A stretch of DNA of 58,812 nucleotides, from assembly GCA_018969905.1 (NCBI GenBank), contig JAGWXK010000002.1:1-58812 (forward strand), read 5' to 3'. Below the pieces are notes generated by a model. The model saw only the letters and a list, made by a program, of their open reading frames with translations. It searched no databases and was not told the DNA's origin. This document shows, piece after piece, positions 13,329 to 46,639 of this stretch (its first letter is position 1; every line of letters begins with the position of its first letter). Source of the DNA: Bdellovibrionales bacterium. GTDB taxonomy: Bacteria; Bdellovibrionota; UBA1018; CAIMNF01. Both the position numbers and the translations under genes were made by a program.

Positions 13329-13490
13329 AAATGTTCTCCCGAAAGTGCAGCAAATCAAATGCCTGCCTGCATCTCTTCCGTCTAGTTTGATGCACAAGTG
13401 CCATCGATACAACCGGCAAATCCTACCGACATACGAGCGGCAAAAATTACCGACTTGTCTTCCGTCTTTTGCCCTTAAACTATCCAAAGC

Positions 13491-31007: not shown

Positions 31008-32951
31008 TTACCCGAGTAAAACGCCCAAGTCTTCCCAGCGGGCAAGTTTTTGATCCAATAGCACTTGAGCCCGCGACTGCTCCTCAATCCACTCCCGAAG
31101 CCGCTCCGGGGCACTCGCATGATCGCCTGTTGCAATCGCCTCGTTCAGCTCTAAAATCCGCTTCTCAAGCTGCGTGATCTCATTTTCAACTTTCTTGAGT
31201 TCCGTCTCCCAGGCCTTGCGTTGGTTATTGGAAACCTTCGGAGTTTCAAGGCGATGGGTGACGGCTCCGAGCGTAGGTTTTAATGCATCGGGTTTTGCGG
31301 ATCGCTTGAGCTTCTCGCGGGTCTCCTCCACTTTTTTCGCAAGATATTCCTCATAGGTGCAAACCAACGGAGTGACCTTTTGGTCCCGGATCTCGAGCAA
31401 CTGATCCGCAAGTGGTGCCACAAAATCCCGATCATGCGACACCAGACACAAAGTCCCCTGATAATCCATCAGCGCCTGGAGCAAAACTTCGCGGGAATCC
31501 GAATCCAAGTGGTTTGTGGGCTCATCGAGCAACAAAAAATTATTGGGAGTGAGCAGGAGTTTTGCTAGGGCCACACGCGCCTTTTCGCCACCCGAGAGAA
31601 CCCCGATCTTCTTGTTCACATCATCCCCGGTAAACAGAAATGCTCCCGCAATTCCCCTGACTTCCGCAATTTCAAGATGGGGCGCCGTATCCTCGAGCTC
31701 CTGAAGGATTGTGTGGTCCAGCCTGAGAGTCTCGGCCTGCAGTTGCGAATAGTAACCAACCTTCACCTGATGGCCTAGTTTCAGGGTTCCCTCGCTGAGC
31801 CTTACCTCGCCCGAAAGTCCGCGCGCGAGGGTTTTCAGCAAAGTCGTTTTGCCTGCGCCATTCACCCCGACAATTGCAACCCGAGAGCCCCGTTGCAAAA
31901 TCCAATCGAATCCTGAAAAAATCGTTTTTGAATGCCCTGAATCCTCTCCGAAACGCACTCCTGCGGCCTTGAGGGTTGCCACCTCTTTCCCGCTCGGGGG
32001 GCAAGGCGGAAAACGAAAACGCACCTTGGAGCGGGATTCCGGAAGCTCGATGAACTCCATCTTTTCAAGTTGCTTTGCCCGGCTTTGGGCTTGCCTGGCC
32101 TTACTGGCCTTTGCTCCAAATCGCTCAATGAAGGCCCGAAGCTCGGCCGCTTTTTGCTGCTGACCCTCGAATTGGGCCTCCAAAACCTTGAGACGTTCCT
32201 CCTTTTGCAAAATGAAAGCATCAAGATTTCCGGCATACGCCTGGATTTTTCGCTGATCGATTTCCCAAACCTCATCCACCAGGCGATTGAGGAACAGGCG
32301 ATCATGACTCACCATCAGAATGGCACCTGGATAGTTTTTCAAAAACTCCTCAAGCCAAAGGAGGGATTCAAGATCAAGATGGTTCGTAGGCTCATCCAGA
32401 ATCAAAAGGTCCGGCTGCAGAAGAAGGACCCGGGCAAGAGCCACGCGCATGAGCCATCCGCCGCTTAACTCCGAGAGATTTCGATGAAAATCCCTCTCAG
32501 AAAATCCAACACCCTCCAAAATTCTCGCCGCCCTTGATGGAAGTCGATACTCATCCAGCGCATCGAATTCTTCGAGCACTCTCGCATAGGCCGCTAGAGT
32601 CGCAGGATCATTGCCTCCGTCGGCTCCGTGTTGCATTTTATTTTCAAGATCGGCTTTCTGCGCAAGGATCTCCTCCCGCCGCCCATCCAGTCGCATGACC
32701 TCCTCGAGTATGGTGCGATTCTCAAATTTCGGAAGCTCTTGGGCAAGATGGCCGATCTTGATGAATGGATCTCTGACAATGGCACCGTGCTCAAAGGTGT
32801 CCTCCCCCAGGATCATTCGGATCAAAGTGCTCTTCCCTGCGCCATTTGCCCCGATCAATGCAATTCTTGATTTCTCGCCAAGGCTGGCAAACGCCCCTTC
32901 AAAAAGAATTTTCGAGCCGTATTGCTTGGAAAGATCTCGCAGCTGAATCAT
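31008..32951 (-). CDS. ABC-F family ATPase (two ABC domains, no membrane domain, C-terminal coiled coil)
   Basis: Two Walker A sites (GANGAGKST, GVNGAGKTT), two signatures (LSGGWLMR, LSGGEKAR) and two Walker B sites (LILDEPTNHLD, LLLDEPTNHLD). Its start codon overlaps the stop of the pseudopilin gene (tcat at 32948-32951). Confidence 0.9.
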   Translation of the reverse strand: MIQLRDLSKQYGSKILFEGAFASLGEKSRIALIGANGAGKSTLIRMILGEDTFEHGAIVRDPFIKIGHLAQELPKFENRTILEEVMRLDGRREEILAQKADLENKMQHGADGGNDPATLAAYARVLEEFDALDEYRLPSRAARILEGVGFSERDFHRNLSELSGGWLMRVALARVLLLQPDLLILDEPTNHLDLESLLWLEEFLKNYPGAILMVSHDRLFLNRLVDEVWEIDQRKIQAYAGNLDAFILQKEERLKVLEAQFEGQQQKAAELRAFIERFGAKASKARQAQSRAKQLEKMEFIELPESRSKVRFRFPPCPPSGKEVATLKAAGVRFGEDSGHSKTIFSGFDWILQRGSRVAIVGVNGAGKTTLLKTLARGLSGEVRLSEGTLKLGHQVKVGYYSQLQAETLRLDHTILQELEDTAPHLEIAEVRGIAGAFLFTGDDVNKKIGVLSGGEKARVALAKLLLTPNNFLLLDEPTNHLDSDSREVLLQALMDYQGTLCLVSHDRDFVAPLADQLLEIRDQKVTPLVCTYEEYLAKKVEETREKLKRSAKPDALKPTLGAVTHRLETPKVSNNQRKAWETELKKVENEITQLEKRILELNEAIATGDHASAPERLREWIEEQSRAQVLLDQKLARWEDLGVLLG

Positions 32952-33766
32952 GGATTGATGTCGATCTGTTTACAGGGAACCACAAAATTAGGAGAGTCCA
33001 CCGTAATCAACACGGGACCGATCATCTGGCCTGTTACTTTGATGATCAATGAGCGAACTCCGAAGGGGACCTGCGAAAACCTGAAATATCCATTGCCACC
33101 AGGACCGAGGTCCAGTCCCTCCTCCCTCAAACCACCTGTGCCGTCGGGAAAGCTCAGGTGGACTCTGGCCTCGGAATCAAAAGGCCCCCCATTGTCGCAG
33201 ATGAAGCCACTCACCGTGGCATACAATGCCTCTGTTGGCACACTGACCACAATGTCCGCATTCAAACCGGTGCCCCCGGGCTCTCTGTTCGCCCCATAAG
33301 AGGTCAAAGTGAGTTTATTGCCTGAAGTATCATATTGAATTGCAGTTCCCCAAGCATCGGTATCCACACTTGCACCAGGATTCGGAAGCGTAAGGTATGG
33401 TCCGCTCCATCCAAATGAAAGCCTGACCCCATTGTCCGGTGCAAACGCGGGGTAGGAGGAATTACTGATCAAAGCTCCGAGTCCCGGCGTGGGCGCCGCA
33501 GGAAGTCCGCCAAGATCTCCGAATATTCCGAAACTCGTCCGAATTCCCTGATTTCGAATTGCCGGATCCCCCACCAAAGCTACCTTGAGTTGTTCGAGCT
33601 TGGCGATCGTTTCCTGATACCTGGACTCATCCACATAGTCCGCCAACATATCCATGGAGGCAAGCGCAAGAATCGCAATGAGTCCCACGACCATGAGGAC
33701 CTCGATCAGCGTAAATCCCTGGGAATTTGGATGCTCATTCTTAGGGATCCTCAAGGTCGTCTCCAT
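32948..33766 (-). CDS. GspG-like pseudopilin with an extra C-terminal beta-sandwich-like domain (paralog of 45809..46639)
   Basis: Prepilin N-terminus QG-FTLIEVLMVVGLIAILA (Glu at +5), GspG-like core DAWGTAIQYD...SYGANREPGGTGLNADI, then about 110 extra aa containing YFRFSQVPFGVRSL. Confidence 0.75.
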   Translation of the reverse strand: METTLRIPKNEHPNSQGFTLIEVLMVVGLIAILALASMDMLADYVDESRYQETIAKLEQLKVALVGDPAIRNQGIRTSFGIFGDLGGLPAAPTPGLGALISNSSYPAFAPDNGVRLSFGWSGPYLTLPNPGASVDTDAWGTAIQYDTSGNKLTLTSYGANREPGGTGLNADIVVSVPTEALYATVSGFICDNGGPFDSEARVHLSFPDGTGGLREEGLDLGPGGNGYFRFSQVPFGVRSLIIKVTGQMIGPVLITVDSPNFVVPCKQIDINP

Positions 33767-34211
33767 TTCCGCAGGCCTGATCAGGCCCGCAACTCTTGAT
33801 TGCTCCCGTCACCGGATCATAATTGAACAAGGTCCCCCATCCGTCCGTCTGAAAGTCATTTGCATCTTCGGCAAAAATCGAATCAAGGTATGGTCCGCAC
33901 CATCCTTGAAGCTTCTGGTAGGTCGGACTGCCGGAATCATTGTCAAGTTCGCACGGAATTCCCTCATCAAGTATCAGTAGATCCAGAAGCACAGGATAAA
34001 ACCCGCCATGATCATCGTAATACTTGAGAATTGCGGCTTTCAGTCCCGAAAGCCGCTCCCTGGTTTTCATGGTCCTTTCGGTAAGGGTCGAAGGCGGCGC
34101 GAGCGACAAAACCACCACAGCCGCAAGCGATATCGAGAGAATCACCAGCATCACACTGATCAAGGAGAATCCTCGCCGATTTGAAATGCTAGAATGAAAT
34201 AACGATGTCAT
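33741..34211 (-). CDS. Minor pseudopilin lacking Glu5 (GspK/PilX-like position)
   Basis: The preferred ATG at 34211 gives MTSLFHSSISNRRG-FSLISVMLVILSISLAAVV, with Ser rather than Glu at +5. C-terminal DGWGTLFNYDPVTGAIKSCGPDQACGNGDD. Confidence 0.65.
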   Translation of the reverse strand: MTSLFHSSISNRRGFSLISVMLVILSISLAAVVVLSLAPPSTLTERTMKTRERLSGLKAAILKYYDDHGGFYPVLLDLLILDEGIPCELDNDSGSPTYQKLQGWCGPYLDSIFAEDANDFQTDGWGTLFNYDPVTGAIKSCGPDQACGNGDDLEDP

Positions 34212-34656
34212 CACTGGTTCCGGGACTTTGATCCGGTCCATGGCTCGTAATGGTTCTCCCGACTGAATTGTAATCGAAAGACTCACCCCATGCATCCTTG
34301 AAAGTTTCGGAATCAGAGGTGGAGAGATAGGGAGCTTTCCAGCCCTGTTGGGTCAAGGGGTTATATGCGCTCGCACAAATGCCGGAACCGGGCATGGCCG
34401 TAGTCAACTCAGAAAGAGTTAACGGAGGCACACCGCAGTGGGAAAGAAATCCAGGCTTCGTATACTTCCCGCCAGCCACAAGCCTGGAGTCACCCAAAAT
34501 CGCAAGCTTGATCAGATTCATCCTGTCTTTTGTGATCGCGATCCTGGCATCCCGTCCAAAGTCCACAAACACCGCCACTGCAATGGTAGCAAGGACTGAA
34601 ACCAATAAGATCGCCATGAGGAGCTCAATCAGGGTGAAGCCTTGCCTGTAATTCAT
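34189..34656 (-). CDS. GspG-like pseudopilin
   Basis: The ATG at 34656 (RBS GGGAG upstream) gives MNYRQG-FTLIELLMAILLVSVLA. C-terminal DAWGESFDYNSVGRTITSHGPDQSPGTSDDIV closely follows the T2SS GspG pattern (DPWGxxY...G(A/P)D...G...DI). Confidence 0.75.
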   Translation of the reverse strand: MNYRQGFTLIELLMAILLVSVLATIAVAVFVDFGRDARIAITKDRMNLIKLAILGDSRLVAGGKYTKPGFLSHCGVPPLTLSELTTAMPGSGICASAYNPLTQQGWKAPYLSTSDSETFKDAWGESFDYNSVGRTITSHGPDQSPGTSDDIVISF

Positions 34657-34689
34657 CTTGCTCCCAAACACGGGGGGACTAAGGATCAA

Positions 34690-35271
34690 TCAGTAATCGC
34701 ACTCGTTGCTAGGTGCCCCATTTGAACCACTGTTCCTACGGGTATTCGCCCAGATCTCACCTGTCGCCTGATTGTAGCACCAACCGTTTTCGGCTCCGGT
34801 ATGGGCGACACCGGCGCAGTTCCTTGCACAATGATTGCCAAATGCCGTGCAACCGGAAGTTGCATCACCCACACACGCGGTCACCGTTCTGCTTAAGGCC
34901 TCATTTGCTTGGATGTCGTTAGACCATGGATTCACAGGAATCCCACCCGCCACGAAAACACTGTCAGGCACCGTAACTTGAGAGGGCAAACACCCAGAGG
35001 CTCCGCCATTGATGTCATTTGCGTTGATCGAAGCCGCATCCGGAAAAGAAACGGTTTGCACATTGCAACGAAGCCGCATGAGCCCGTTTTTCTCTGAGAT
35101 CGCACGCCTCAGCACCTGCAGATTCGCCCTGGTGGCTGCATCCCTGGAGTCTTTCCCGTAGTTCACGAATTGTGTGACTCCAATCACTGCGAGGATGGCG
35201 ATCACAAGAATCACCATGAGAAGTTCAATGAGCGTAAATCCCTTTTGATTCGTCTGAGTGAGTCTTTTCAC
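34690..35271 (-). CDS. Type IV pilin-like protein, Cys-rich (8 Cys), probable major subunit; paralog of 42305..42841
   Basis: GTG start at 35271 with GGGAG 7 nt upstream. N-terminus MKRLTQTNQKG-FTLIELLMVILVIAILAVIGVTQF. First gene of the pseudopilin operon. Confidence 0.75.
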   Translation of the reverse strand: MKRLTQTNQKGFTLIELLMVILVIAILAVIGVTQFVNYGKDSRDAATRANLQVLRRAISEKNGLMRLRCNVQTVSFPDAASINANDINGGASGCLPSQVTVPDSVFVAGGIPVNPWSNDIQANEALSRTVTACVGDATSGCTAFGNHCARNCAGVAHTGAENGWCYNQATGEIWANTRRNSGSNGAPSNECDY

Positions 35272-35468
35272 AGTTCATCTCCCGAAATCCCCAGCTGATG
35301 AGGATGTAAAATTCACGTTTGAAACAAGTATAAACCGAGGAAGCAACTATAGTATAGAAAAATACTTTGAACACCTGTTTTTTTGACTCGGCCACAAACT
35401 TGACAAGCTTTTGTCACCTCAGGTTAGGCTGGAGGATTCCACATCAGTGAGGGTACACTGATTCCAAG

Positions 35469-36698
35469 ATGGGAAAGTTCTACTACCGTGCACGAAACCG
35501 GAAAGGGGAATTGGTTGAAGGCTCGGTTCGTGCCGACAATGAGTGGCTTGCACGGAAAGATCTTGCCCGCCAGAACCTGATCCCCCTTGAGATCGGACGG
35601 TTCAACCTGCGCCTGATTTTCAACGATGCAAACGGATCCGTAGAGAGACTGACCCAAAGGGTCTCGCTCGAGGAAAAGATCACACTCCTGGGCCAGATTG
35701 AAATGGGAATTTCCGTGGGCATACCGATCATGCAGATGTTCACCATGCTTCAAGGCGAGGTTCAAAACAAACGCCTAAGGGCGGTTCTGGGGCAAATCAT
35801 CCTGGACATCACCGACGGAGGAACCCTTCACGGTGCATTTGCGAAACATCCGGATGTGTTTGATCCAACCATAATTGGTCTGATCAAAACAGGAGAAGTA
35901 ACTGGAAAGCTCGATGAAACCCTGGGCAGAATCACGCAGCTTCTGGAGCAGGAAGCCGAGAACCGGGCCAAAGTAAAGTCAGCGATGTACTATCCGAAAA
36001 TTGTGGCATTTGCGATGGTGGTTGTCGTTTTGGTGATGGTTTATTTTGTCATTCCGAAGATCAAACAATTCCTGAAAAACTTCAACTCGGATCTACCGCC
36101 GATCACCCAGTTTGTTGTGGGCACTTCGGATTTTTTTATCCACTATTGGTATGCGATTTTTGGAGTTTGCTTCGCCGCCTATCTGGGGTTCAAAAAAGCC
36201 ATACAGACGACACGTGGAAAACTCTGGTTTGACAGTACAATCCTGAAACTTCCGGCAGTGGGCAAGGTCCTCTTGTATTTGGAGCTCAACAACTTTTGTG
36301 TGATCCTTGAGCTTCTTCTTTCAAGCGGCATTCCTTTGCTGGAATCGCTGGAAACTCTAAAAGGTTCGCAAAAAAATCAGCTCTTCAAAAATGCGCTTGG
36401 TGATTTCCAAATGGAAATCTCAAAGGGCGGAAGCCTGGCCAAGGGCATGGACCGGCATCCGGTGTTCCCGCACACTCTCCGGAGCATGATCAATATCGGC
36501 GAGGAAACGGGTCGAATCTCTCCCGTTTTGAAGCGTCTGGGACGGTATTACCATGTTCAGCTCAATTACCTTCTCGGAAATTTGTCAAAGGCTCTCGAAC
36601 CGATTCTGCTCTTCATGGTCTTTATCTGTGTCCTGATTCTTGCTCTCGCTGTTTTCCTTCCAATCTGGAAGATGAACGCCGTGATCAAACCGCGATGA
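35469..36698 (+). CDS. Type II secretion / type IV pilus platform protein (GspF/PilC/MshG family)
   Basis: 409 aa with two T2SSF-type repeats (GLIKTGEVTGKLDETL and MINIGEETGRISPVL) and three membrane spans. Confidence 0.88.
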   Translation: MGKFYYRARNRKGELVEGSVRADNEWLARKDLARQNLIPLEIGRFNLRLIFNDANGSVERLTQRVSLEEKITLLGQIEMGISVGIPIMQMFTMLQGEVQNKRLRAVLGQIILDITDGGTLHGAFAKHPDVFDPTIIGLIKTGEVTGKLDETLGRITQLLEQEAENRAKVKSAMYYPKIVAFAMVVVVLVMVYFVIPKIKQFLKNFNSDLPPITQFVVGTSDFFIHYWYAIFGVCFAAYLGFKKAIQTTRGKLWFDSTILKLPAVGKVLLYLELNNFCVILELLLSSGIPLLESLETLKGSQKNQLFKNALGDFQMEISKGGSLAKGMDRHPVFPHTLRSMINIGEETGRISPVLKRLGRYYHVQLNYLLGNLSKALEPILLFMVFICVLILALAVFLPIWKMNAVIKPR

Positions 36699-36702
36699 TT
36701 CC

Positions 36703-38094
36703 TCATCTTCGCGCAGGAGCGGAGGGAGCCATCTCGGGAATCCGGGAATGGCTTGTGGGTTGACGGTTGGCCGCCTCAAGTTCCGGCTCGTTCTCGCCTC
36801 CAACATATGAATCGGTTTTCGCGTTCTCGGGATTGCCGATCGAAGGAGTAAGGAAGATGACCAATTCGTTGTTCTGATCGATCACTTCCCGGGATCTGAA
36901 CAACAGCCCCAGAAGAGGGATGTCCTGAAGGAACGGCACACCTCCGCTGGTTTTTGCCTTGTTTTGCTTAACCAACCCTGCAATCACCGCCGTCTGTTTG
37001 TCACGAACGATGACAGTGGTATTTGCGGAGTTCTTCAGGATTCCCGGAATACCATCCACCGAACTTCCTACATCCGAGGTGGAATTGTTGATGTCCACAC
37101 TGAGCTTGATTTCGTCATCTCCCACCAGAATCGGCAGGATGTTCAGATTCAGCCCTGCCTGAAGAGAGGTCACCCCACCCGCAACCGCTCCCAGACCACC
37201 GCCTGCTCCCGCTCCGACGGCACCCATTGCTGCTCCGGGAATCTGCCCTCCTCCGAAGCCCGCTACCGGACGGTCAGTGGTGAGGACATTGCTCAAGGTT
37301 TTCACAAAAAATGTGATCCCGCTTTGAATCGTCGCGGTTTTATTGTTCAGTGTCGTGACCTTCGGCCTTGAGATCACCTTGGCGTCGCCATTCGTCTCTG
37401 CGGCATTCAAACGGACCTCAAGGGTTCTCGAATCAATTCCGGTCAAGACGGTCTTGAATTCCGCATTCGGATTATTTGGCCCGGGAGTTGTGGTGCGGTT
37501 TCCAAAACCCGACATTGAAATCCCCAACTGTCGGACAAAATTGTGTGATGTTTCGACAATCAATCCTTCGATCAGGATTTGTTTTGGTGCTACATCGAAC
37601 ATGGCCGCAAGAGATTTGATTTTCTCGAAATTCCCCCGGGAACCCATAAAGATCAGATTGTTCTCCCTTTCATCGACGAGTATTTTTTCATCCCCCCCCA
37701 TCACGGTTTTGATTTTTGCGGAGACATCCGAGGCCGGAACATACCGAAGATGCAAGAGATGGGAATCGCCGATGTTCGTACCAACCGTACGCCTCGTGAT
37801 GATCAATTCTGATCCTGAAATCGTGTACTCAATCTGCTGGTCACGCGCCAGGTAATCCAGTAGCTGGCGTGGCGTGACCCCTGTCTGGGTCAGGGTTACA
37901 TTCACACCGGGATCCTGCGCAAGCACCAGGGACAAACCTGAACGGGCAGCCACCATTTCAAGAACGCCCCGGAGCGGAGTATCCTTCACATTCACGGTCA
38001 TCTCGGCATCCATTTGGGAAAACCCCTGAATCGGGAACAGCAGGAACATCGTCGCTTGCCAAAATATGGCTTTGGATCTTTTCATTATTCTCAT
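36703..38094 (-). CDS. Secretin (PilQ/MshL/GspD family outer-membrane channel)
   Basis: Signal peptide, N-domains, and a secretin core with VIAGLVKQNKAKTSGGVPFLQDIPLLGLLFRS. Last gene of the pilM operon. Confidence 0.88.
   Translation of the reverse strand: MRIMKRSKAIFWQATMFLLFPIQGFSQMDAEMTVNVKDTPLRGVLEMVAARSGLSLVLAQDPGVNVTLTQTGVTPRQLLDYLARDQQIEYTISGSELIITRRTVGTNIGDSHLLHLRYVPASDVSAKIKTVMGGDEKILVDERENNLIFMGSRGNFEKIKSLAAMFDVAPKQILIEGLIVETSHNFVRQLGISMSGFGNRTTTPGPNNPNAEFKTVLTGIDSRTLEVRLNAAETNGDAKVISRPKVTTLNNKTATIQSGITFFVKTLSNVLTTDRPVAGFGGGQIPGAAMGAVGAGAGGGLGAVAGGVTSLQAGLNLNILPILVGDDEIKLSVDINNSTSDVGSSVDGIPGILKNSANTTVIVRDKQTAVIAGLVKQNKAKTSGGVPFLQDIPLLGLLFRSREVIDQNNELVIFLTPSIGNPENAKTDSYVGGENEPELEAANRQPTSHSRIPEMAPSAPARR
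37692..37699 (-). repeat. Homopolymer G8 (C8 on the plus strand) inside the secretin coding sequence
   Basis: The plus strand reads t-cccccccc-a at 37691-37700. The coding strand is ATG GGG GGG GAT (MGGD). Confidence 0.95.
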
Positions 38095-38519
38095 TGTGAT
38101 TGCTCCTCGTCTTCATCCTCATACGGAACACCATCCGGAACATCATCCGTCACAGGAGGCAATGTGAGCTCGACTTCAGAATGCTTTCGCTTCAAAATGA
38201 CGTAATTGGGGCCAATTTTTTTCACCATTCTGCCCCCGATCCTGTCGCCCTCCAGCACCAATTTTCCATTCACGACGGCAGAAGGATTCCTCCTGCTGAA
38301 CATGACACCCCCAAGGGTGAATTTCTCTGCCGTGGAGGGAACCGGCGCAAAGCCTGGGATCCTCAGGAATGGATCTTCACCCCACGGAATTTTTGGCTGT
38401 CCCATGATGAATCCGTAATCAACATCCGAAATGACCTCAAAGTCCTGATCTGTCGCCCTGGCGATGCTGTAAATCTGCAGAACGAGCAAAGTAAGGATTT
38501 GCAGGCAATGGTACCTCAT
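38091..38519 (-). CDS. Small periplasmic pilus/secretion assembly protein (PilP / GspB / MshK-like)
   Basis: The ATG at 38519 forms an ATGA overlap with the pilO-like stop. Signal MRYHCLQILTLLVLQIYSIARA. The C-terminal motif AVVNGKLVLEGDRIGGRMVKKIGPNYVILK resembles the conserved GspB/PilP-type beta segment. Acidic tail. Confidence 0.5.
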   Translation of the reverse strand: MRYHCLQILTLLVLQIYSIARATDQDFEVISDVDYGFIMGQPKIPWGEDPFLRIPGFAPVPSTAEKFTLGGVMFSRRNPSAVVNGKLVLEGDRIGGRMVKKIGPNYVILKRKHSEVELTLPPVTDDVPDGVPYEDEDEEQSQ

Positions 38520-39073
38520 CGCGAAGCCCCCCCGACATAACCATAAAGCCGGATACTGGCTTTGCATTGCTTCAGTTCGTTTTCGATTCTTGCGATGTCT
38601 ATGGACTCGATCTCGGTCAGCAAAGACGAATCCTCCAGATTCTCTAGAAATTTTCCAATTGCAATGAAGCTGGACTCTGCCTCGAGCGAATAAAGAGTCT
38701 GCGTATAGCCCTCGAAGCGATTCGATTGCAGTGCAACGATGCTTTGGATTGAAAACTCACTCTCTTTTGACCCCTTGAAGATTCCCTGGATTACATTGGA
38801 GAAACGGTCGTTTGAGCTCAAATACCGGTCCAACAGCGAGAGAGTGGTTTGATTGTCTGCCACTGCGGGAACACGGTTTTTAAGTCCCTCCAATACCTTT
38901 TGGGTATCCTCCACTTTTTTCCTCGTTTCTGAGATCCTGGCCTTCAGACTCATCAACTCCAACGAGTGGGGCTTTTGCCAGAATCGATCGAAGGCAAACA
39001 TGCTCATGACAGAAAACAGACTGATCAGAAGTGACTCACTCCATTTCAATTTGAATTTTGAAGGAAAGATCAT
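38516..39073 (-). CDS. pilO: PilO-like pilus assembly protein
   Basis: 185 aa with one N-terminal TM (LLISLFSVMSMFAF), a coiled coil and an alpha/beta C-domain. Located between the pilN-like and pilP-like genes. Confidence 0.55.
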   Translation of the reverse strand: MIFPSKFKLKWSESLLISLFSVMSMFAFDRFWQKPHSLELMSLKARISETRKKVEDTQKVLEGLKNRVPAVADNQTTLSLLDRYLSSNDRFSNVIQGIFKGSKESEFSIQSIVALQSNRFEGYTQTLYSLEAESSFIAIGKFLENLEDSSLLTEIESIDIARIENELKQCKASIRLYGYVGGASR

Positions 39074-39672: not shown

Positions 39673-40297
39673 CCTCAGAACGAATGACCCGCACTATGAT
39701 TCTTCGATTCGCGTCCTCGCGGTCCCCCATCGGCCTTGAATCTCCATACCCTGAAACCTTGAGCTGACTTTTCGGAAAGCCTTCTTCCTCAAAGATGTGT
39801 AGAAGCGAGGCAGCCCTTGCTGCCGAGAGCTCCCAATTGGATGGAAAAACCCTTCGCTGTTTGACGACGGGGGAAGCATCGGTATGCCCCTCAATCTCGA
39901 TCATCGCGCTGGAAAATGCCTCCTTCAATAAAACTGCAACCTTTCGGATTTCCGGTATCGAGCGCTGCTCGAGATTGGCTGTACCGATCCTGAAGAACTG
40001 ATCCGACTTGAATTCAACAGTGAGTTCTTCTTTTCCCGCACCTGAGTCCAACTTCTCCACTCCGGGTACTCCGAGAATCCGTGATTCAACCTCATTCAGA
40101 AACGCGCTCGATTCCACCGGTGCGACACTCTCCACGGGATTCATCGAAACCGGAAGAGGCTCCTCCTTTGGTCTCGATCCCGAAAACAGGGCGAGGGCAA
40201 ATCCGACAAACACGATCGCGCTGCAAGCCACGAGCTTCCTGGAACCAAGGAGGGGTTCACGTACGATAAAGTTGATCCTTGCACTTCTGCCTTTCAT
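39656..40297 (-). CDS. OmpA/MotB-like peptidoglycan-binding protein with an N-terminal TM anchor
   Basis: C-terminal IEIEGHTDASPV...FPSNWELSAARAASLLHIF...VSGYGDSRP is the OmpA_C/MotB motif set. N-terminal MKGRSARINFIVREP is followed by the TM span LVACSAIVFVGFALALF. Confidence 0.8.
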   Translation of the reverse strand: MKGRSARINFIVREPLLGSRKLVACSAIVFVGFALALFSGSRPKEEPLPVSMNPVESVAPVESSAFLNEVESRILGVPGVEKLDSGAGKEELTVEFKSDQFFRIGTANLEQRSIPEIRKVAVLLKEAFSSAMIEIEGHTDASPVVKQRRVFPSNWELSAARAASLLHIFEEEGFPKSQLKVSGYGDSRPMGDREDANRRIIVRVIRSEGGEGG

Positions 40298-41364: not shown

Positions 41365-42215
41365 GATGCGCCCCCCTGAAAAATGGAAAAGATTGATTTC
41401 GACTTGATCCCAAGCGATTCGCGGACCACTGATGCCTCGACAAGACGGATCCTGCGCATTTCGGAGAACGCAAGGACTCTTTCACAAATCTGATTGATTC
41501 TTCGCGGTGTTCCCGCGCTCAGCTCATGGATCGCCCGAATGGAAGAGGGATCAAACTTGATGAAGCTCCCTTTGACCACCTGCTCAATCCGGCTTTTGAT
41601 GTAACGCTCGGTTTCGTTGCGATCAAGCGCATGGAGCTGCGCATGAGCACCGATTCTTTGTTTCAGCTGCCTGAGGTCCGGGCGATCGAGGATTTCATTC
41701 AACTCCGGCTGTCCAACCAGAATGATCTGCAGAAGCTTTCGCGTGCGGGTCTCAAGATTCGTAAGCAGCCGGATGGTCTCAAGAGCTTCCCGATTCAAGG
41801 CTTGTGCCTCATCGATCACGAGAATCGAAGGCCGGCCCGATTCGAGACTGGCGATGAGAAAACGGTTCAAGTGATCAACGTAAGCTTTTGCGGTGTGAAT
41901 GGACTCATTTGGCGCGGGAATCTCGAACTCCTCGCAGATGGCCTGTAGGAGCTCAAGCTCATTGAACTTAGGGAAGAGAATGAGGGCAGTGTTGGCAACC
42001 GGAGCATGAAGACCAAGGATCATTCGTGCAAGCAAAGTCTTACCGGTACCAACCTCTCCGGTCAGAAGGCTAAATCCCTTTCCATGCTTCAAAGCCAGAT
42101 CCAGTTCGCGAATTGCAAGATTGTGCTGCGCGGATCCAAAGTAAAAATCCGGATCCGGAGTTTCCCCGAATGGATTGATCTCGAGATTGAAAAATTTACT
42201 GTAGTAGGTCTTCAT
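41361..42215 (-). CDS. ExeA/GspA/MshM-like AAA ATPase
   Basis: The ATG at 42215 gives MKTYYSKFFNLEINPFGETPDPDFYF (typical ExeA N-terminus). Walker A is GEVGTGKTLLARM and Walker B is ILVIDEAQ. About 284 aa, with no C-terminal peptidoglycan-binding domain. Confidence 0.8.
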   Translation of the reverse strand: MKTYYSKFFNLEINPFGETPDPDFYFGSAQHNLAIRELDLALKHGKGFSLLTGEVGTGKTLLARMILGLHAPVANTALILFPKFNELELLQAICEEFEIPAPNESIHTAKAYVDHLNRFLIASLESGRPSILVIDEAQALNREALETIRLLTNLETRTRKLLQIILVGQPELNEILDRPDLRQLKQRIGAHAQLHALDRNETERYIKSRIEQVVKGSFIKFDPSSIRAIHELSAGTPRRINQICERVLAFSEMRRIRLVEASVVRESLGIKSKSIFSIFQGGAS

Positions 42216-42304
42216 AGGCCCTTCTCTGACTTCCTTTCGGAAAATCACGCAAAGGCCCTGAATTTATTTTTGATTATCCGTTCATTGACGCTTTGTAGGA
42301 AGCA

Positions 42305-42841
42305 TCAGTAGGTGGTTTCGTTCCCGCTGCCATCACCGTTGTTGGCCTGTGAATTCGCCCAGACGTTTCCGGTGCCAACATCATAACAGTACCCGTTGAA
42401 TGGAGCGCTGCCACACCTGGTACGCAAGCTCGGATCCGAATTCCATGTCCCCGCAGTGATGCTCGATCCGCTCGCACTGACATCGGCAGACCAAGGATTC
42501 GGTGGAATGCCACCGGTAACGAAGAAGTTGTCCGGAGAAGAAACCTGTGAAGAGTTACATGGTGCGCCGGCTCCACTTGTAATGTCATTTGCCGCAAGAC
42601 TTGCCAGAGGCGGGAAGCTTGAGCTGATTACACCGCAGCGCAAACGCATCATACCGTTTTGCGCCGCAATCGCTCTTCTTAAGATCTGTAAATTGGCCTT
42701 GAGTGCGGAGTTCCTAGAATCTTTCGCAAAATCGACAAATTGAGTCACACCGATTGCAGCGAGAATTCCGATGACCAGAATTACCATCAACAATTCAATC
42801 AGGGTAAAACCTTGTTCCTGGATTCGATTATTTTTCACCAC
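42305..42841 (-). CDS. Type IV pilin-like protein (4 Cys), paralog of 34690..35271; first gene of the pilM-secretin operon
   Basis: The ORF track starts at 42907. I prefer the GTG at 42841, preceded by GGAGAG plus a 7-nt spacer, which gives a 10-aa leader (M)VKNNRIQEQG-FTLIELLMVILVIGILAAIGVTQF, the same length as its paralog. Confidence 0.7.
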   Translation of the reverse strand: MVKNNRIQEQGFTLIELLMVILVIGILAAIGVTQFVDFAKDSRNSALKANLQILRRAIAAQNGMMRLRCGVISSSFPPLASLAANDITSGAGAPCNSSQVSSPDNFFVTGGIPPNPWSADVSASGSSITAGTWNSDPSLRTRCGSAPFNGYCYDVGTGNVWANSQANNGDGSGNETTY

Positions 42842-43051
42842 GATTTCACTCTCCAAAAAAGTTACAAAGCAAAAAATCCTATATTTCCAATCATCAAACA
42901 GAATCACGAAAATTACAGCCTTTAAAAGTCCGAAACGGTCAAAAAATGAAAATAATACGCGCCAAAAAGAAAACTTCCGTCAAAAAACAGACGATTATGG
43001 CGCCGAAATCAAGTCATCAAGATTCCTAACTGAAAAGACGATACCTTACAC

Positions 43052-44770
43052 ATGGGAAGTCCCGCGGAATCCAAATCCATTTCACTCAGCACACATCGGA
43101 AATTCGGTGAGGTACTGGTGGATTTGAATTTCCTTACCCAGGACCAGGTGGATGCAGCCCTCGAAAGAAGCAATGAAAAACGACTGAGACTTGGCGACCT
43201 CCTGCTTGGGGAAGGATTGCTGAGCGAAGAACAGGTCGCGCAAGCGCTTGCAGCCCAGTATGAACTCCCATTTCTCAATCTTGATGGAACCCATCTCGAC
43301 TCGGACCTCTCAAAACATCTTCCGGAGCGAATCGCGCGGGGTTTTTCCATTCTGCCTGTTCATTTTCAGGAAGGGATGATGACTCTTACCACCCATGATC
43401 CGATACAGTTTTTAAAATTGGAGAATCTAAAGAACATTCTAACCAGCGAAGTCGCCTTGAAGGTAAGCCCTCGATCCCAGATCGAAGCTGCGATCAATCG
43501 GATCTATAACGATGAACACTCAGTTGATAAAATCGTAAAACATCTCGCAAGAAAGCAAGTCAACAAAAAGGCATCGACGGGACTCTCCGCAGTCGTAGTT
43601 CCATTCAAGGATTCAGCTCCCTCCATCGAATCGCTTGTAAACAAGTTCATCAGCAGGGCAATCATGGATCGGGCAAGCGACATCCATATCGACCCGGCGG
43701 AAGAAAAAGTACGGGTCCGCGGAAGAATCGACGGAATTTTACACGAACTGTACACTTATCCGCCAGAGCTGCATCAGAGTGTCGCCTCGAGAATCAAGGT
43801 TCTCTCAAACCTGGACATCTCCGAGCGCAGACACCCCCAGGACGGCGGTTTTCACCATTCTCAAGGCTCCCGTCCAGTAGACATCCGGGTCTCCACTCTC
43901 CCCACCGCTTACGGTGAGAAACTGGTGCTGAGGCTTCTCGACAAAGAGAAGATGAGGGGAACCCTTGCACAAATCGGAATGAGTTCGGAGATAGAGGCAG
44001 ATGTACAGTCACTGTTGCAAAGACCTCATGGAATCATCCTCATCACAGGTCCCACAGGAAGCGGAAAGACCACCACTCTCTATTCGATGCTGAATCAAAT
44101 CAATGCAATTGAAAAAAACATCATCACAGTGGAAGATCCGATCGAGTTCAAATTCGATGTCATCAATCAAGTTCAGGTAAATGAAAAAGCCGGTCTCTCA
44201 TTTGCAGGACTTTTACGGAACATTCTTCGGCAGGATCCGGATATCGTCATGATCGGAGAGGTCCGAGATCAGGAAACAGCGGACCTTGCGATCCGTGCGG
44301 CTCTCACAGGGCACCTCGTGCTCAGCACTATCCATACCAATGATGCGGTAAGCACCCCCACACGGCTCATGGACATGGGAATCGAGCCATTTCTACTGGC
44401 CTCTGGGCTCAGCGCCGTGCTGGCGCAGCGTCTGGTTCGAGTCCTGTGTGTTCACTGTAGAAAGAGAGTGCCTCTCTCTGAGGCCGATGCCCGAATCCTC
44501 GGAATCCGCTTCCTCAGTGCCGGCACTCCTGTCTTCGAACCAGTCGGGTGCGAAAAGTGCCTCCACTCCGGGTATCAGAACCGCATTGCTCTTTTCGAAC
44601 TGATGCGAATTGATGATTTCGTGAGACGAGCCTTTATTGAGCGAAAGAGCGAGAGCGATATCCTTCAACATCTTTCAAACAATGGCTTTATCAGCATGAG
44701 ACAGGACGGAGGATTCAAGATCGTGGCGGGAATCACCTCGGTCGAAGAGGTTCTGAAGGCAACACTCTGA
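43052..44770 (+). CDS. Type IV pilus / T2SS assembly ATPase (GspE/PilB/MshE family) with an N-terminal MshEN-type domain
   Basis: Walker A GPTGSGKTTTL, Asp box, Walker B DPDIVMIGEVRD, His box, and a C-terminal tetracysteine (CVHC...CEKC). The N-terminus carries tandem MshEN motifs. Confidence 0.9.
   Translation: MGSPAESKSISLSTHRKFGEVLVDLNFLTQDQVDAALERSNEKRLRLGDLLLGEGLLSEEQVAQALAAQYELPFLNLDGTHLDSDLSKHLPERIARGFSILPVHFQEGMMTLTTHDPIQFLKLENLKNILTSEVALKVSPRSQIEAAINRIYNDEHSVDKIVKHLARKQVNKKASTGLSAVVVPFKDSAPSIESLVNKFISRAIMDRASDIHIDPAEEKVRVRGRIDGILHELYTYPPELHQSVASRIKVLSNLDISERRHPQDGGFHHSQGSRPVDIRVSTLPTAYGEKLVLRLLDKEKMRGTLAQIGMSSEIEADVQSLLQRPHGIILITGPTGSGKTTTLYSMLNQINAIEKNIITVEDPIEFKFDVINQVQVNEKAGLSFAGLLRNILRQDPDIVMIGEVRDQETADLAIRAALTGHLVLSTIHTNDAVSTPTRLMDMGIEPFLLASGLSAVLAQRLVRVLCVHCRKRVPLSEADARILGIRFLSAGTPVFEPVGCEKCLHSGYQNRIALFELMRIDDFVRRAFIERKSESDILQHLSNNGFISMRQDGGFKIVAGITSVEEVLKATL
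43100..43258 (+). other. Tandem 24-residue MshEN c-di-GMP-binding motifs separated by a 5-residue spacer
   Basis: Motif 1 is aa 17-40, KFGEVLVDLNFLTQDQVDAALERS. The spacer is NEKRL. Motif 2 is aa 46-69, RLGDLLLGEGLLSEEQVAQALAAQ. Compare the consensus RLGxx(L/V/I)(L/V/I)xxG(L/V/I)(L/V/I)xxxx(L/V/I)xxxLxxQ. Confidence 0.75.
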
Positions 44771-44813
44771 TTTCAAGCGTTCTACGGATTCGCAGGAGCC
44801 GATGAGCCATGCA

Positions 44814-45725
44814 TCAATCATACTCTTCTGAATTGAGAAGCTCTTTTTCCTCCCTCTCTTGGGACTCTTCCTCCTTCAGGTAACCCACAAATGCATTCAT
44901 TCTCGCGAGTCTTTTTTGGATGGCTGGTTTCAGTGCGCCATTCAATGCGGAATTTTCGATAAACTCCTGATATTCACGGGCCGCATCGATCGGACGTCCT
45001 GCGAGTTCCATTGCCTTGGCCAGGTTCAGACGCGCGTCCACATATTCCGGTTTGAGCTGAATTGCTTTTTGAAAGTAAAGAATTGCAGGTCCATAACTTC
45101 TTTCGGCAAGTCCAATCGCCCCAAGGTTGTTGTAGACCACTTCGAGTTTCGGGGCTCCGGCAAGAGGAGATGCGGATCCAAGCAGTTTCCCCGCTTTTCC
45201 CAGAATCTCCTTTGCCTCCTTGAATTCTTTCATCTTTGCTTTGGACATTCCGAGATTGATCAATGAAAGCGGATTCAGCGGATCTATTTCCAAGGAACGG
45301 GAAAAAAGAATGGCGGCCTCCGGATATCGCTGTTTTTTGAAATGCTCCACTCCTCCACGATTCAACTCCAATACCGCTTTCGATATCACCCTTTCCTCAT
45401 CCCTCTCCACCAGGGATTCGGAAACCGGGGGCCGCGTGCCCTGAAGGACCGGATGCCGGGGAAGAACCTTGAGCTGATAGGTAATCGCCCGCTCAATTCG
45501 CCTGCCCTCCGTGATCAACCAATATGAATATCCGGAAACACAAAGAAAAACGGTGAACAAAACAAAAAGACGCGTTTGTTTGACCTTGGTCTTTTTGATC
45601 GGCCTCAGTTGAAGCCGTCCAAAATCAGGGGGGGGCGGAGGGGGGGGAACAAGTCTCAGATGCGAAGCCTTTCGACCCGCCCTTTCCAACTCCTCCCTGA
45701 ACAACTGCTTCAAGACCTTGCTCAT
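44814..45725 (-). CDS. Membrane-anchored TPR-repeat protein (MshN/PilF-like position)
   Basis: The N-terminal cytoplasmic segment has a PPPPPPP run, followed by a TM span (LFVLFTVFLCVSGYSYWLI) and several TPR-like repeats (AAILFSRSLEIDPLNP..., AILYFQKAIQLKPEYVDARLNLA...). Confidence 0.7.
   Translation of the reverse strand: MSKVLKQLFREELERAGRKASHLRLVPPPPPPPDFGRLQLRPIKKTKVKQTRLFVLFTVFLCVSGYSYWLITEGRRIERAITYQLKVLPRHPVLQGTRPPVSESLVERDEERVISKAVLELNRGGVEHFKKQRYPEAAILFSRSLEIDPLNPLSLINLGMSKAKMKEFKEAKEILGKAGKLLGSASPLAGAPKLEVVYNNLGAIGLAERSYGPAILYFQKAIQLKPEYVDARLNLAKAMELAGRPIDAAREYQEFIENSALNGALKPAIQKRLARMNAFVGYLKEEESQEREEKELLNSEEYD
45628..45647 (-). repeat. Two G8 homopolymers separated by cgga (C8...C8 on the coding strand) encoding the poly-Pro run
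   Basis: On the plus strand, 45628-45635 is gggggggg, 45636-45639 is cgga and 45640-45647 is gggggggg. Confidence 0.95.
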
Positions 45726-45808
45726 AGACCTTCCCTGATGACTTTTCGGCGCTCGCGTCAGAATCTTGAGCTATTTTGATCGGGTGTCAACCGGTACACA
45801 GCTCTGAT

Positions 45809-46639
45809 ATGATTGGAAATGTGAGGAACACTCGGGGATTTACATTGATTGAGGCTCTGATGGTGGTGAGCCTGGTTGGCATCCTCGCCGCGATATCTCT
45901 GGTTCCCACAAGGGACTCGTTGGATCAGGCCAGGTATGATGAGACGCTGAACCACATGAAACAGATTCGTACCGCCCTTGTCGGAGAGATGAGTGCAATT
46001 TCGACAAAATCCAGATTCGGTTATCTCGGCGACATAGGGGCTCTTCCCACGATCACACAGGGATTGGCCGCTCTCCTGGAAACTCCCACCGGAATCAGTT
46101 CGTGGAGAACCTACACTCAATTTCGAATCAATTCCGGCTGGAATGGCCCGTATCTTTTCGATCACTTTTCAGGCGAGGCGGACCCCTCCAGAGATGCCTG
46201 GGGAACAGCCTATGTTTACGACCCTGATTCGGATCCGGCAACCGTGATCAGTCTGGGCGCCGATCGGGCCACCGGTGGAACTGACCTGAACTCGGACATC
46301 ACCCTGACGATTCCGGTAAATCGTCAGCAATATTTCGTGAATGGACTCGTCTTGGATCATGGGAATCCCTGGAGCGGATCACTGGAGGTAGAGATCAATT
46401 CTCCCGATCCTGCGAGCGGAGAAATCGGCTCCAGATCCTATACGATTTTGCGCGAGGATCAGGGAGCCTTCCAATTCAACAGGGTACCTCCGGGAATACG
46501 ATCACTCACTTTTTTTCTTCCCTCAAAAGCATCAGCCAGAGTGACCTACGGCCCCTATATCATCACGGTTGATCAACCCCACACGCTTGCAGTCTTCGGG
46601 ACTGCGGATCACCCGCTTGATTTGCGTGCCGCTCGTTGA
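45809..46639 (+). CDS. GspG-like pseudopilin with an extra C-terminal beta-sandwich-like domain (paralog of 32948..33766)
   Basis: The ATG at 45809 gives MIGNVRNTRG-FTLIEALMVVSLVGILAAISL. Core DAWGTAYVYDPDSDPATVISLGADRATGGTDLNSDI, then the extension with AFQFNRVPPGIRSL. The track start at 45776 is a TTG. Confidence 0.75.
   Translation: MIGNVRNTRGFTLIEALMVVSLVGILAAISLVPTRDSLDQARYDETLNHMKQIRTALVGEMSAISTKSRFGYLGDIGALPTITQGLAALLETPTGISSWRTYTQFRINSGWNGPYLFDHFSGEADPSRDAWGTAYVYDPDSDPATVISLGADRATGGTDLNSDITLTIPVNRQQYFVNGLVLDHGNPWSGSLEVEINSPDPASGEIGSRSYTILREDQGAFQFNRVPPGIRSLTFFLPSKASARVTYGPYIITVDQPHTLAVFGTADHPLDLRAAR

Follow-up and report, generated by a model that had tools for sequence, protein, structure and literature searches.

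A conserved 16-gene type IV filament locus in a Bdellovibrionales bacterium, best read as a lineage-specific branch of the pilus, MSH and secretion-system radiation

Contig JAGWXK010000002.1 of a Bdellovibrionales bacterium (assembly GCA_018969905.1), analysed here over its whole 58,812 nucleotides (hereafter the window), carries 16 contiguous type IV filament genes at 32948-46639 (13.7 kb), as derived from the listing of open reading frames (ORFs), their translation and Pfam/NCBIfam scans. The inventory comprises two Cys-containing paralogous pilins, four minor pilins with the GspG motif, a platform protein, an MshEN-type ATPase, PilM, PilN and PilO, an OmpA-like anchor, a GspB/HR-like protein, a short PilQ-like secretin, a short AAA+ protein of the ExeA/MshM kind and a membrane-anchored TPR protein (Table 1); the filament-assembly gene set is complete except for the prepilin peptidase. 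The domain matches of all 16 genes are far above chance, which bears out the claim of an earlier reading made from the letters only (the sequence-only reading) that they belong to one filament machine. That reading had distributed them over four transcription units; its genes lie at or very near the positions found here, but strand and gaps define six units, the ATPase gene, the TPR gene and the last pseudopilin gene each forming a unit alone. For several genes the lengths of the orthologues indicate that the true start is probably internal to the ORF (42841, 42215, 39651, 34656, about 34211 and 45809). A decaying remnant was ruled out, all 16 ORFs being intact and conserved. Gene context was read in the 58.8-kb window and in the 10-kb flanks of the loci of relatives.

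Table 1. Genes of the type IV filament locus, with their positions in the window
Gene product	Positions	Strand	Domain matches and remarks
Bimodular minor pilin, 272 aa	32948..33766	-	N_methyl and T2SSG above Pfam cutoffs; class III signal peptide
Minor pilin without Glu at +5 (G/FSLIS)	33741..34211	-	ORF to 34295, true start uncertain
Small GspG-motif minor pilin, ~155 aa	34189..34656	-	N_methyl 31.9, T2SSG 24.6 bits; ORF to 34689
Major pilin candidate 1, 193 aa	34690..35271	-	N_methyl 32.2 bits, no T2SSG domain
Inner-membrane platform, GspF/PilC family, 409 aa	35469..36698	+	T2SSF 169.7 bits
Short secretin, 463 aa	36703..38094	-	Secretin 131, Secretin_N 29.4 bits
Small periplasmic GspB-C-terminal/HR-like protein	38091..38567	-	PF16537 T2SSB; likely start 38519
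PilO-like alignment protein, 185 aa	38516..39073	-	PF04350 PilO 22.0 bits, at cutoff
PilN-like bitopic protein, 193 aa	39070..39651	-	PF05137 PilN 40 bits; ORF to 39672
OmpA/MotB-like protein, predicted to bind peptidoglycan, 213 aa	39656..40297	-	PF00691 OmpA 58 bits
PilM, actin-like cytoplasmic ring protein, 356 aa	40294..41364	-	PilM_2 123 bits
Short AAA+ protein, ExeA/GspA/MshM family, ~284 aa	41361..42215	-	AAA_22 89 bits; ORF to 42248
Major pilin candidate 2, ~178 aa	42305..42841	-	N_methyl 27.7 bits; ORF to 42907
Assembly ATPase, 572 aa	43052..44770	+	T2SSE 437, MshEN 45.7 bits
Bitopic inner-membrane TPR protein, 303 aa	44814..45725	-	TPR families
Second bimodular GspG-fold minor pilin, ~276 aa	45809..46639	+	T2SSG 43.6 bits; ORF (287 aa) starts 45776

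No core protein reaches the NCBIfam equivalog or subfamily cutoff for type IVa pili (T4aP), type II secretion systems (T2SS) or mannose-sensitive haemagglutinin (MSH) pili; Pfam models at the domain level are matched. The mixed affinities pointed out in the sequence-only reading are real at the level of hidden Markov models (HMMs), as seen in the PilQ-like secretin, PilM/N/O, the GspG-fold minor pilins, the GspA/ExeA-like AAA+ domain, the GspB domain and the MshE motif. The best reading of these comparisons is that the locus represents a separate, lineage-specific branch of the T4aP/MSH/T2SS radiation, MSHA-like in composition. Such a branch would join a T4aP-like core to accessories and a layout that are MSH-like, and to minor pilins and accessory domains that are GspG/GspA/GspB-like.

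Concerning the outer part of the machine, the secretin bears a signal peptide, a weak N0/STN domain, one N1 domain and the secretin domain, with neither AMIN domains nor a lipobox. It scores 174 bits on PilQ (TIGR02515, cutoff 284), 135 bits on GspD (cutoff 351) and 92 bits on MshL (TIGR02519, cutoff 250.2), staying below all three cutoffs, with the MshL score below that for PilQ. Among structures in the PDB it matches Myxococcus PilQ at 129 and P. aeruginosa PilQ at 109 bits, and every GspD at 49 bits or less, and it is collinear with the T4aP PilQ of V. cholerae over residues 32-419. PilM scores 125.3 bits on TIGR01175, just under the cutoff of 133. PilN has one transmembrane (TM) segment and an N-terminal 'VNFIP' peptide, which, from what is known of the PilM-PilN contact in T4aP, we take to be the PilM-binding peptide, while the position of PilO is kept across related loci. 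The alignment subcomplex is hence T4aP-like, as had been proposed, with PilM/N/O in place of GspL/M beside a secretin that is PilQ-like rather than GspD-like. The small GspB/HR-like protein carries a signal peptide and is not a lipoprotein. PF16537 (T2SSB) is matched in 6/6 of its orthologues, with a best E of 1.4e-4 that is below the Pfam cutoff, and T2SSC in 2/6; on the protein of the window itself the T2SSC match is faint (E 0.057). Because its gene adjoins the secretin gene in all related loci, directly upstream of it, the small protein is likely, by sequence, to be a secretin connector of the PilP/GspC-HR/GspB type, in the position of MshK.

The ATPase contains a 53-residue N-terminal stretch with a putative MshE-type cyclic di-GMP (c-di-GMP) binding motif, the MshEN domain, and a T2SSE domain with Walker A and tetracysteine motif. 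The model for the MshE-type motif, NF053729, gives 50 bits against a cutoff of 38, and the tandem layout 24+5+24 is found at residues 17-69 (pattern from PMC5013675); the second motif fits the relaxed published pattern, with one departure from the strict consensus (Val for Leu). As a whole the protein scores 559.5 bits on GspE (NCBIfam, cutoff 630) and 550.4 bits on PilB (TIGR02538, cutoff 675.65), short of both. Thermus PilF, Myxococcus PilB and Geobacter PilB structures align over the full length with 420-452 bits, the first two being the best PDB matches, whereas GspE structures align over the catalytic part with about 370 bits. Sequence identity is 42.5% to ExeE, about 38% to the PilB of a Bdellovibrionota PilB-PilT-PilC locus and 35% to the MSH-type ATPase of Legionella. 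The platform protein likewise stays below the cutoffs, with 275.7 bits on GspF (TIGR02120, cutoff 424) and, on the PilC models, 244.9 bits (Thermus type) and 213 bits against 700.

Phylogenetic placement, which had been suggested as a check, was attempted for the ATPase with a neighbour-joining tree (100 bootstraps) of 109 PilB/GspE-type ATPases, with PilT as outgroup and generic PilB/GspE loci as background. The family of the window ATPase is monophyletic with a bootstrap of 100. ExeE groups among loci of the 'secretin-ATPase-platform' kind, and the PilB proteins of Bdellovibrionota/Myxococcota PilB-PilT-PilC loci form another group, both apart from the window family; the sole MSH-type reference, from Legionella adelaidensis, is also apart from it. 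The clade as such is clear; the deep nodes of the tree have bootstraps of 0-22. The labelled references used in these comparisons were an Aeromonas caviae chromosome filed as a plasmid (exeD-E-F-G, exeA), the Ideonella gspA-gspB pair and the Legionella adelaidensis locus, annotated with mshL by the Prokaryotic Genome Annotation Pipeline (PGAP). Two further candidates for an MSH reference were rejected: a Photobacterium AAA+ match intended for the Vibrionaceae, which lies in a polysaccharide-type locus without pilus genes, and the Aeromonas matches, which are ExeE and ExeA of the T2SS.

ExeA is a peptidoglycan-binding protein of about 550 aa. The AAA+ protein of this family has 284-295 aa and lacks both a TM segment and a peptidoglycan-binding domain; its best NCBIfam match, TIGR03015 (XrtA/PEP-CTERM-associated ATPase), gives 230 bits against a cutoff of 324.5, and the closest annotated proteins are Ideonella GspA (548 aa, beside GspB; 221 bits), Aeromonas ExeA (192 bits) and the Legionella MshM-like protein (149 bits). 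In architecture it is a short, purely cytoplasmic form nearer to MshM than to ExeA. A GspA/ExeA-GspB/ExeB pair in the full sense was not found in the window, given an AAA+ protein lacking the TM and peptidoglycan-binding parts and a GspB represented, weakly, by its C-terminal domain. The ExeA/GspA plus GspB-like pair of the sequence-only reading therefore stands as to homology (221 bits for the AAA+ domain, a GspB domain in all six orthologues) but not as to architecture, the AAA+ protein being short and MshM-like. Peptidoglycan binding may instead be supplied by the separate OmpA-like protein. Direct association of an AAA_22 ExeA-like gene with secretin-ATPase(-platform) genes was also seen in Entotheonella, Smithella, Syntrophaceae and an unclassified metagenome-assembled genome (MAG) (L008, L048, L070 and L083), which suggests that the ExeA-like accessory has been widely recruited to T2SS/T4P-like loci outside Gammaproteobacteria.

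The TPR protein has a cytoplasmic Pro-rich N-terminus, one TM segment at residues 53-71 and periplasmic TPRs; its scores on PilW (TIGR02521, 36 against 154) and PrsT (36 against 312) are far below the cutoffs. In MSHA loci mshM adjoins mshN, and in three of the related loci (L004, L005 and L092, see below) the TPR gene adjoins the AAA_22 gene. By analogy, the TPR protein would be an MshN-like partner of the AAA+ protein. The likeness of the ExeA-like/TPR/MshEN-ATPase trio to the MSHA locus, already remarked upon, is in this way upheld by the short AAA+ protein, by the gene pairing in relatives and by the NF053729 score. The OmpA-like protein, whose gene lies between pilM and pilN, has an N-terminal TM anchor, and its MotD-, MotB- and TssL-type matches are all below cutoff. 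In the window, in L001 (6637-7293) and in L003 (6590-7291) it starts with '(R)(I/L)NF-x-(P/V)R' before the TM segment, which resembles the 'LNFIP' peptide of PilN at motif level (the BLAST match, E 0.07, is not significant). Judging from this motif, the wall anchor could dock on PilM as PilN does.

Class III signal peptides of the N_methyl type are present in 5/6 pilins. The sixth, without such a match, is the minor pilin lacking Glu at +5 (Glu5-less), a paralogue of the 166-aa pseudopilin ORF (BLAST E 6e-18). As claimed before, the GspG signature extends to all four pseudopilins: the motif D-A/G-W-G-x4-Y ... G-P/A-D/N ... D-I/L is readable in 4/4, and the gathering score of Pfam T2SSG is passed by 3/4. 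None reaches the GspG equivalog cutoff (TIGR01710, 88.85), with 29.9 bits for the 155-aa and 60.8 bits for the 276-aa pilin. The four are mutual paralogues, with 25-38% identity over full pilin modules; the 272-aa and 287-aa bimodular proteins share 38% identity over 258 aa, and the orthologue of the ~155-aa pilin in L001 has 154 aa. Since homologues of PilK/GspK invariably lack Glu5 (PMC13533445), an apical position fits the Glu5-less subunit, which by analogy is likely to stand where GspK/PilX does.

An AlphaFold2 model of the 272-aa pilin, built on an alignment of 32 sequences, has a mean local confidence (pLDDT) of 87 and shows two modules. In Foldseek searches the N-terminal module matches EpsG/GspG (TM-score 0.66-0.70), and the C-terminal one a CnaB/transthyretin-like beta-sandwich of the BcpA type, found in Gram-positive pilins and adhesins; distant relatives of the protein match PF13620, and the L006 orthologue of the 287-aa pilin contains a ConA-like lectin insertion. 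The 272-aa protein has, in the model, the two-module build of modular type IV pilins. A profile search in 1.84 billion representatives returned 252 proteins at E<=1e-30 that span both modules, many of them with 390-1100 aa, which implies further C-terminal domains. Modular pilins are documented adhesin carriers that present adhesive modules on filaments (PMC8179133), and with their add-on modules the minor pilins look like adhesin carriers too.

The two major pilin candidates have no GspG domain, are Cys-rich and are the first genes of operons. Candidate 1 has a 10-residue leader before the cleavage-site Gly (G/FTLIE) and 8 Cys in the mature part; candidate 2, which heads the long minus-strand operon and has a 171-aa orthologue in L001, has 4 Cys and is 50% identical to candidate 1. 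Compared with L001, the major pilins (60% for candidate 1, 55% for candidate 2) and the OmpA-like protein are the fastest-evolving, with identities of 55-60%; the ATPase, platform, secretin and AAA+ protein stand at 83-86%. Such fast evolution would be expected of pilus subunits exposed at the surface. In L006, three tandem pilin paralogues lie beside glycosyl- and methyltransferases.

All relatives of the window ATPase come from metagenomes or MAGs, and an exact look-up of this ATPase in the assembly collection gave no record. In L001 (86% ATPase identity) and L003 (65%) the gene order is identical from the 272-aa to the 287-aa pilin; the sequence past the latter differs in L003, which places the boundary of the module at 46639. 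In L004 (52%), L005 (45%) and L092 (44%, Bdellovibrionales bacterium RBG_16_40_8) the genes are rearranged and the set is the same, with AAA_22, TPR, PilM, PilN, PilO, small protein, secretin, ATPase and platform, and with pilins consisting of large T2SSG-type proteins of about 265-405 aa, two small minor ones and one or two major ones. Nearly every protein of the window has a specific counterpart in L004 and L005 by phmmer and BLAST. The exception to the orthologue set is the OmpA-like gene, present in L001, L003 and L005 and absent from L004 and L092. A recent chimera or duplication was ruled out, since loci at 45-52% ATPase identity contain a separate orthologue of every paralogue. Recurrence of the orthologues in loci down to 44-52% ATPase identity argues that the paralogous pilins and large pseudopilins are ancient, fixed components, and the system appears, from these comparisons, to be an old and fixed family. 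The description of the locus as a hybrid with duplicated subunit sets, in the sense of something recent or aberrant, is accordingly not sustained, with gene order kept at 65% and orthologues kept at 44-52% ATPase identity. Four minor pilins plus one or more major pilins are the usual subunit count.

When a genome collection was scanned with the ATPase-family alignment, the matches listed were all generic PilB/GspE loci (36-43% identity), with no named close relative or cultured host among them. The literature search found no description of such a locus in Bdellovibrio, and the supplements of Denise et al. hold no Bdellovibrio entries. At the far end of the ATPase clade (P0057, 42-43% identity) the genes can be orphans: the ATPase gene of L091 (10001-11716) is surrounded by housekeeping genes, without any pilus gene within 10 kb, and adjoins the gene of a 1011-aa protein with a weak BclA_C match. 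On the 412-kb metagenomic contig of L004, an FtsZ-type gene (3017-4207, plus strand; Tubulin and FtsZ_C, 396 aa) is inserted between the pilin genes and the AAA_22 gene.

PilT/PilU, peptidase A24 and GspC/L/M were found in none of the non-overlapping ORFs of at least 150 aa in the window, and scans of all substantial ORFs thus agree with the absences listed previously. Retraction ATPases do not occur in T2SS. MSH systems are as a rule encoded in one locus, without peptidase and with MshM/MshN-like accessories, while T4aP genes are commonly spread over multiple loci (PMC6668835); V. cholerae MSHA pili retract by a PilT encoded elsewhere, and its PilD serves four systems (PMC7096442). The absence of peptidase and PilT at the locus is therefore expected and does not hold as an anomaly, being the norm for MSH loci in the case of the peptidase (PMC6668835) and having a precedent in the PilT and PilD borrowed by V. 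cholerae MSHA (PMC7096442). L036, a Bdellovibrionota MAG of the background set of the tree, has a canonical PilB-PilT-PilC locus, which suggests that such lineages typically have a second, conventional T4aP.

The genes flanking the locus are housekeeping ones (GatCAB, ABC-F, UvrD, GlmU, DsbD/VKOR), and the G+C content of the window is near 51%. GatB of the window has its nearest named relatives, at 69-70% identity, in MAGs labelled 'Bdellovibrionales bacterium', which places the host among uncultured Bdellovibrionota-like bacteria. The start of the ABC-F ATPase gene (31008-32951, minus strand; 647 aa, two ABC_tran and one ABC_tran_Xtn domains) overlaps the stop of the 272-aa pseudopilin gene (32948-32951), and because of this overlap it may be co-transcribed with the pilin operon. 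On the other side, an LspA homologue (PF01252, 67 bits) at 46735-47607 on the plus strand retains both catalytic Asp motifs ('IDF', 'FNFAD') and is extended at the C-terminus by about 140 aa that include additional hydrophobic segments. Its gene comes after the last pseudopilin gene in the window and in L001 but not in L003, and since this position is not kept it is probably outside the pilus module. At 48725-50371 on the minus strand, 2 kb from the locus, there is a 548-aa Wzy_C protein (O-antigen ligase/PglL-PilO type) whose C-terminal tail is TPR-like. In L004 a collinear homologue (2-1504, minus strand; 21% identity, E 2e-15) adjoins the pilin genes, and the gene is absent from L001; by sequence the Wzy_C-type protein is a candidate pilin O-glycosylase. 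In L006 a GT2 glycosyltransferase and two methyltransferases lie between the pilins and the ATPase. Farther away, at 4680-13487, two ORFs without Pfam match (510 and 666 aa) precede a 1167-aa protein with at least 5 fibronectin type III repeats, and a 444-aa Pfam-less ORF runs on the opposite strand at 12153-13487; they are possibly secreted or surface proteins. Scans for sigma-70 promoters and terminators gave sites fewer than or no more than in shuffled sequence, the sigma-54 pattern is no commoner than expected by chance and does not occur upstream of the pilin genes, and no Rfam family, c-di-GMP riboswitches included, was found in the window.

When the locus is set beside known systems, its layout is MSH-like. 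The MSHA locus of V. cholerae and relatives is ordered mshHIJKLMNEGF-BACDOPQ. Pilin, MshEN ATPase, platform, secretin and short AAA_22 gene are likewise all found within 13.7 kb, with no peptidase A24 in the window, in line with the published MSH layout (PMC6668835). Shared with MSHA are a single locus without peptidase or retraction ATPase, a PilM/N-, PilO- and PilP-like set with a short secretin, a short cytoplasmic AAA+ protein with a TPR protein, an ATPase with the MshEN c-di-GMP motif, and several minor pilins. In contrast, MSH-type references are not the nearest matches of the secretin, the ATPase or the AAA+ protein, the gene order is different, an OmpA-like anchor stands between pilM and pilN, MshF and MshH are missing, and four GspG-fold minor pilins, two with a C-terminal beta-sandwich, take the place of MshC/D/O/P and the large MshQ.

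With the T4aP of Myxococcus, Pseudomonas and Thermus the locus shares separate PilM, PilN and PilO, the N-terminal motif of PilN, a PilQ-like secretin, a PilB/PilC-type motor and platform, and major pilins with short leaders and Cys. It departs from them in being a single locus without nearby PilT or PilD, in a secretin without AMIN domains, in a non-lipoprotein GspB/HR-like protein instead of PilP, in an ATPase only about 38% identical to Bdellovibrionota PilB, in the lack of PilY1 and of FimU/PilVWX-type minor pilins (one Glu5-less subunit, like PilX/PilK, is present), and in having, instead of an outer-membrane lipoprotein pilotin, an AAA+ protein of the ExeA kind together with a membrane-bound TPR protein. 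The GspG fold and motif, the GspA/ExeA-like AAA+ domain, the GspB-like secretin-binding domain, ATPase and platform scores at the level of GspE/GspF and the lack of a retraction ATPase in the locus recall a T2SS with GspAB, whereas GspC/L/M and minor pseudopilins of the GspH/I/J/K type are absent, the secretin does not resemble GspD, the TM and peptidoglycan-binding parts of ExeA are missing from the AAA+ protein, and there are additional T4a-type pilins and adhesin-like modules on minor pilins. As to the latter, they are comparable with the modular pilins PilB/PilC of Streptococcus sanguinis (PMC8179133) in being predicted to be tip-exposed and to mediate binding. They differ in the GspG-type pilin module, the diderm host, the two paralogues per locus, the CnaB/transthyretin-like add-on without Pfam match in the 272-aa protein, and the large family, often with extra C-terminal domains. 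Denise et al. counted 884 'generic' type IV filament systems and reassigned many of the non-proteobacterial 'generic' ones to T2SS by phylogeny (PMC6668835). The diversity of type IV filaments outside the model phyla is well documented, and the locus contradicts no known principle.

As to function, we favour, with some confidence and short of conviction, a locus that builds a c-di-GMP-responsive surface pilus for attachment, tipped by modular adhesin-bearing minor pilins. From the gene content, the domains, the conservation, the fold modelled for one minor pilin and the presence of the motif we infer the following functional steps. Prepilins with short class III leaders would enter the inner membrane and be cleaved after Gly-1 by a peptidase encoded outside the window. 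The four GspG-fold minor pilins, by analogy and from the model, would prime assembly at the platform with the Glu5-less subunit as the apical one, and the two bimodular subunits would show their beta-sandwich modules (lectin in relatives) at or near the tip and give binding specificity. The single PilB/GspE/MshE-type ATPase would dock on the PilC/GspF platform inside a PilM ring, itself tethered via PilN-PilO and the GspB/HR-like protein to the short PilQ-like secretin, and would, through the latter, polymerise one or both of the Cys-containing major pilins of T4a type. By analogy with ExeAB and MshMN, the AAA+ protein, its TPR partner and the OmpA-like anchor may place or assemble the secretin complex in the peptidoglycan. 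Conservation of the motif suggests that c-di-GMP at the N-terminus of the ATPase couples piliation to the level of the second messenger, as in V. cholerae MshE. Retraction, if any, would be carried out by a PilT encoded elsewhere.

A pilus is preferred over a T2SS because of the PilQ-like secretin, the separate PilM/N/O, the absence of GspC/L/M and the fast-evolving, Cys-rich major pilins free of the GspG domain. It should be noted that several points weigh against this choice. The machine is known from its genes, from which the surface filament is extrapolated. The first motif of the ATPase is off at three key positions (K, N and S for R, G and Q), its c-di-GMP binding being a prediction, and GspE and PilB align equally well with the ATPase (559.5 against 550.4 bits; 42.5% identity to ExeE against 38% to PilB). 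The best HMM for the platform is GspF (276 against 245 bits for PilC), and the four minor pilins, the GspA-like AAA+ protein and the GspB-like domain lean towards T2SS. The neighbour-joining tree is approximate, with deep-node bootstraps of 0-22 and one MSH-type reference (Legionella), and the AlphaFold2 model of the major pilin, from a two-sequence alignment, has a pLDDT of 39.8, so the T4a-type assignment is one of sequence features. A divergent T2SS would account for part of this. In it a short periplasmic endopilus, consisting mostly of the 155-aa GspG-motif subunit, with the other GspG-like subunits acting as primers, would push folded exoproteins (e.g. predatory hydrolases) through the secretin, with the Cys-rich pilins as accessories or substrates. 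Besides the motif and fold of GspG in all four pseudopilins, the GspA/ExeA-like and GspB-like domains, GspF as best platform HMM and GspE as marginally best ATPase HMM, the lack of a retraction ATPase in the locus and the reassignment of many non-proteobacterial 'generic' systems by phylogeny (PMC6668835) are as expected from it. We nonetheless consider it unlikely: GspC, L and M are absent from the window, the secretin is PilQ-like with a single N1 against the N0-N3 vestibule of GspD, all pseudopilins stay below the GspG cutoff (at most 60.8 against 88.85), adhesin-like or lectin add-ons in proteins of up to ~1100 aa are hard to fit in a periplasmic piston, the Cys-rich pilins encoded first in their operons evolve fast and resemble exposed major pilins, and the ATPases fall outside the ExeE/secretin-ATPase-platform clade.

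That the locus is a bona fide MSH pilus outside Gammaproteobacteria seems quite improbable to us. The secretin scores 92 bits on MshL (cutoff 250) and 174 on PilQ, the ATPase shares only 35% identity with that of the PGAP-annotated Legionella MSH-type locus and the two do not group together, GspA/ExeA are nearer to the AAA+ protein than is the MshM-like protein of Legionella, PilM of the window has no counterpart in the Legionella MSH-type locus, and genes resembling MshQ, MshF or MshH are absent, the minor pilins being four GspG-like paralogues and not MshC/D/O/P. These discrepancies have to be set against a single locus without prepilin peptidase or PilT, a short AAA+ protein like MshM that has a TPR protein as partner (genes adjoining in L004, L005 and L092), an MshEN ATPase with c-di-GMP motif and a short secretin, all of which match the definition and distribution of MSH (PMC6668835). 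Some other output, such as DNA uptake or the export or anchoring of polysaccharide or another surface polymer, with the Wzy_C-type enzyme in the same pathway, would give a role to the Wzy_C protein with TPR tail near the locus and its collinear homologue beside the pilins in L004, to the glycosyltransferases inside the L006 locus, and to the best NCBIfam match of the AAA+ protein (XrtA/PEP-CTERM-associated ATPase, 230 bits). We hold it for very improbable, as the Wzy_C gene is absent from the closest relative L001, such enzymes are equally explained as pilin O-glycosylases, ComEA, ComEC and polysaccharide export genes are absent from the conserved module, and the TIGR03015 score is below cutoff.

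A bolder view, to which we give little credence for now, is that the locus belongs to a separate, unnamed class of type IV filament machine, of the rank of MSH or T2SS and specific to Bdellovibrionota-like, possibly predatory bacteria. Its hallmarks would be a priming and tip complex of four GspG-fold paralogues (one Glu5-less, two adhesin-bearing) in place of the GspH/I/J/K or PilV/W/X set, an OmpA-like wall anchor whose 'INF-P' peptide may dock on the PilM ring, and extension gated by c-di-GMP for prey or surface attachment.

The locus is recognisable as a kind of type IV filament, and its 'missing' peptidase and retraction motor are ordinary for such systems. What is new is a conserved Bdellovibrionota-like family with minor pilins that are all of the GspG fold, a pair of modular pilins in each locus and, between pilM and pilN, an OmpA-like anchor. 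If it is a distinct branch, it adds a clade to the map of divergence of pili, MSH and secretion systems; four GspG-fold paralogues would then replace the four-type minor-pilin initiation complex, which tests the generality of the tip-complex models of assembly. Attachment to prey and entry into it are linked to pili in Bdellovibrio-like bacteria. An additional pilus, gated by c-di-GMP and with adhesin or lectin modules that can be exchanged, would be a plausible determinant of prey or surface range.

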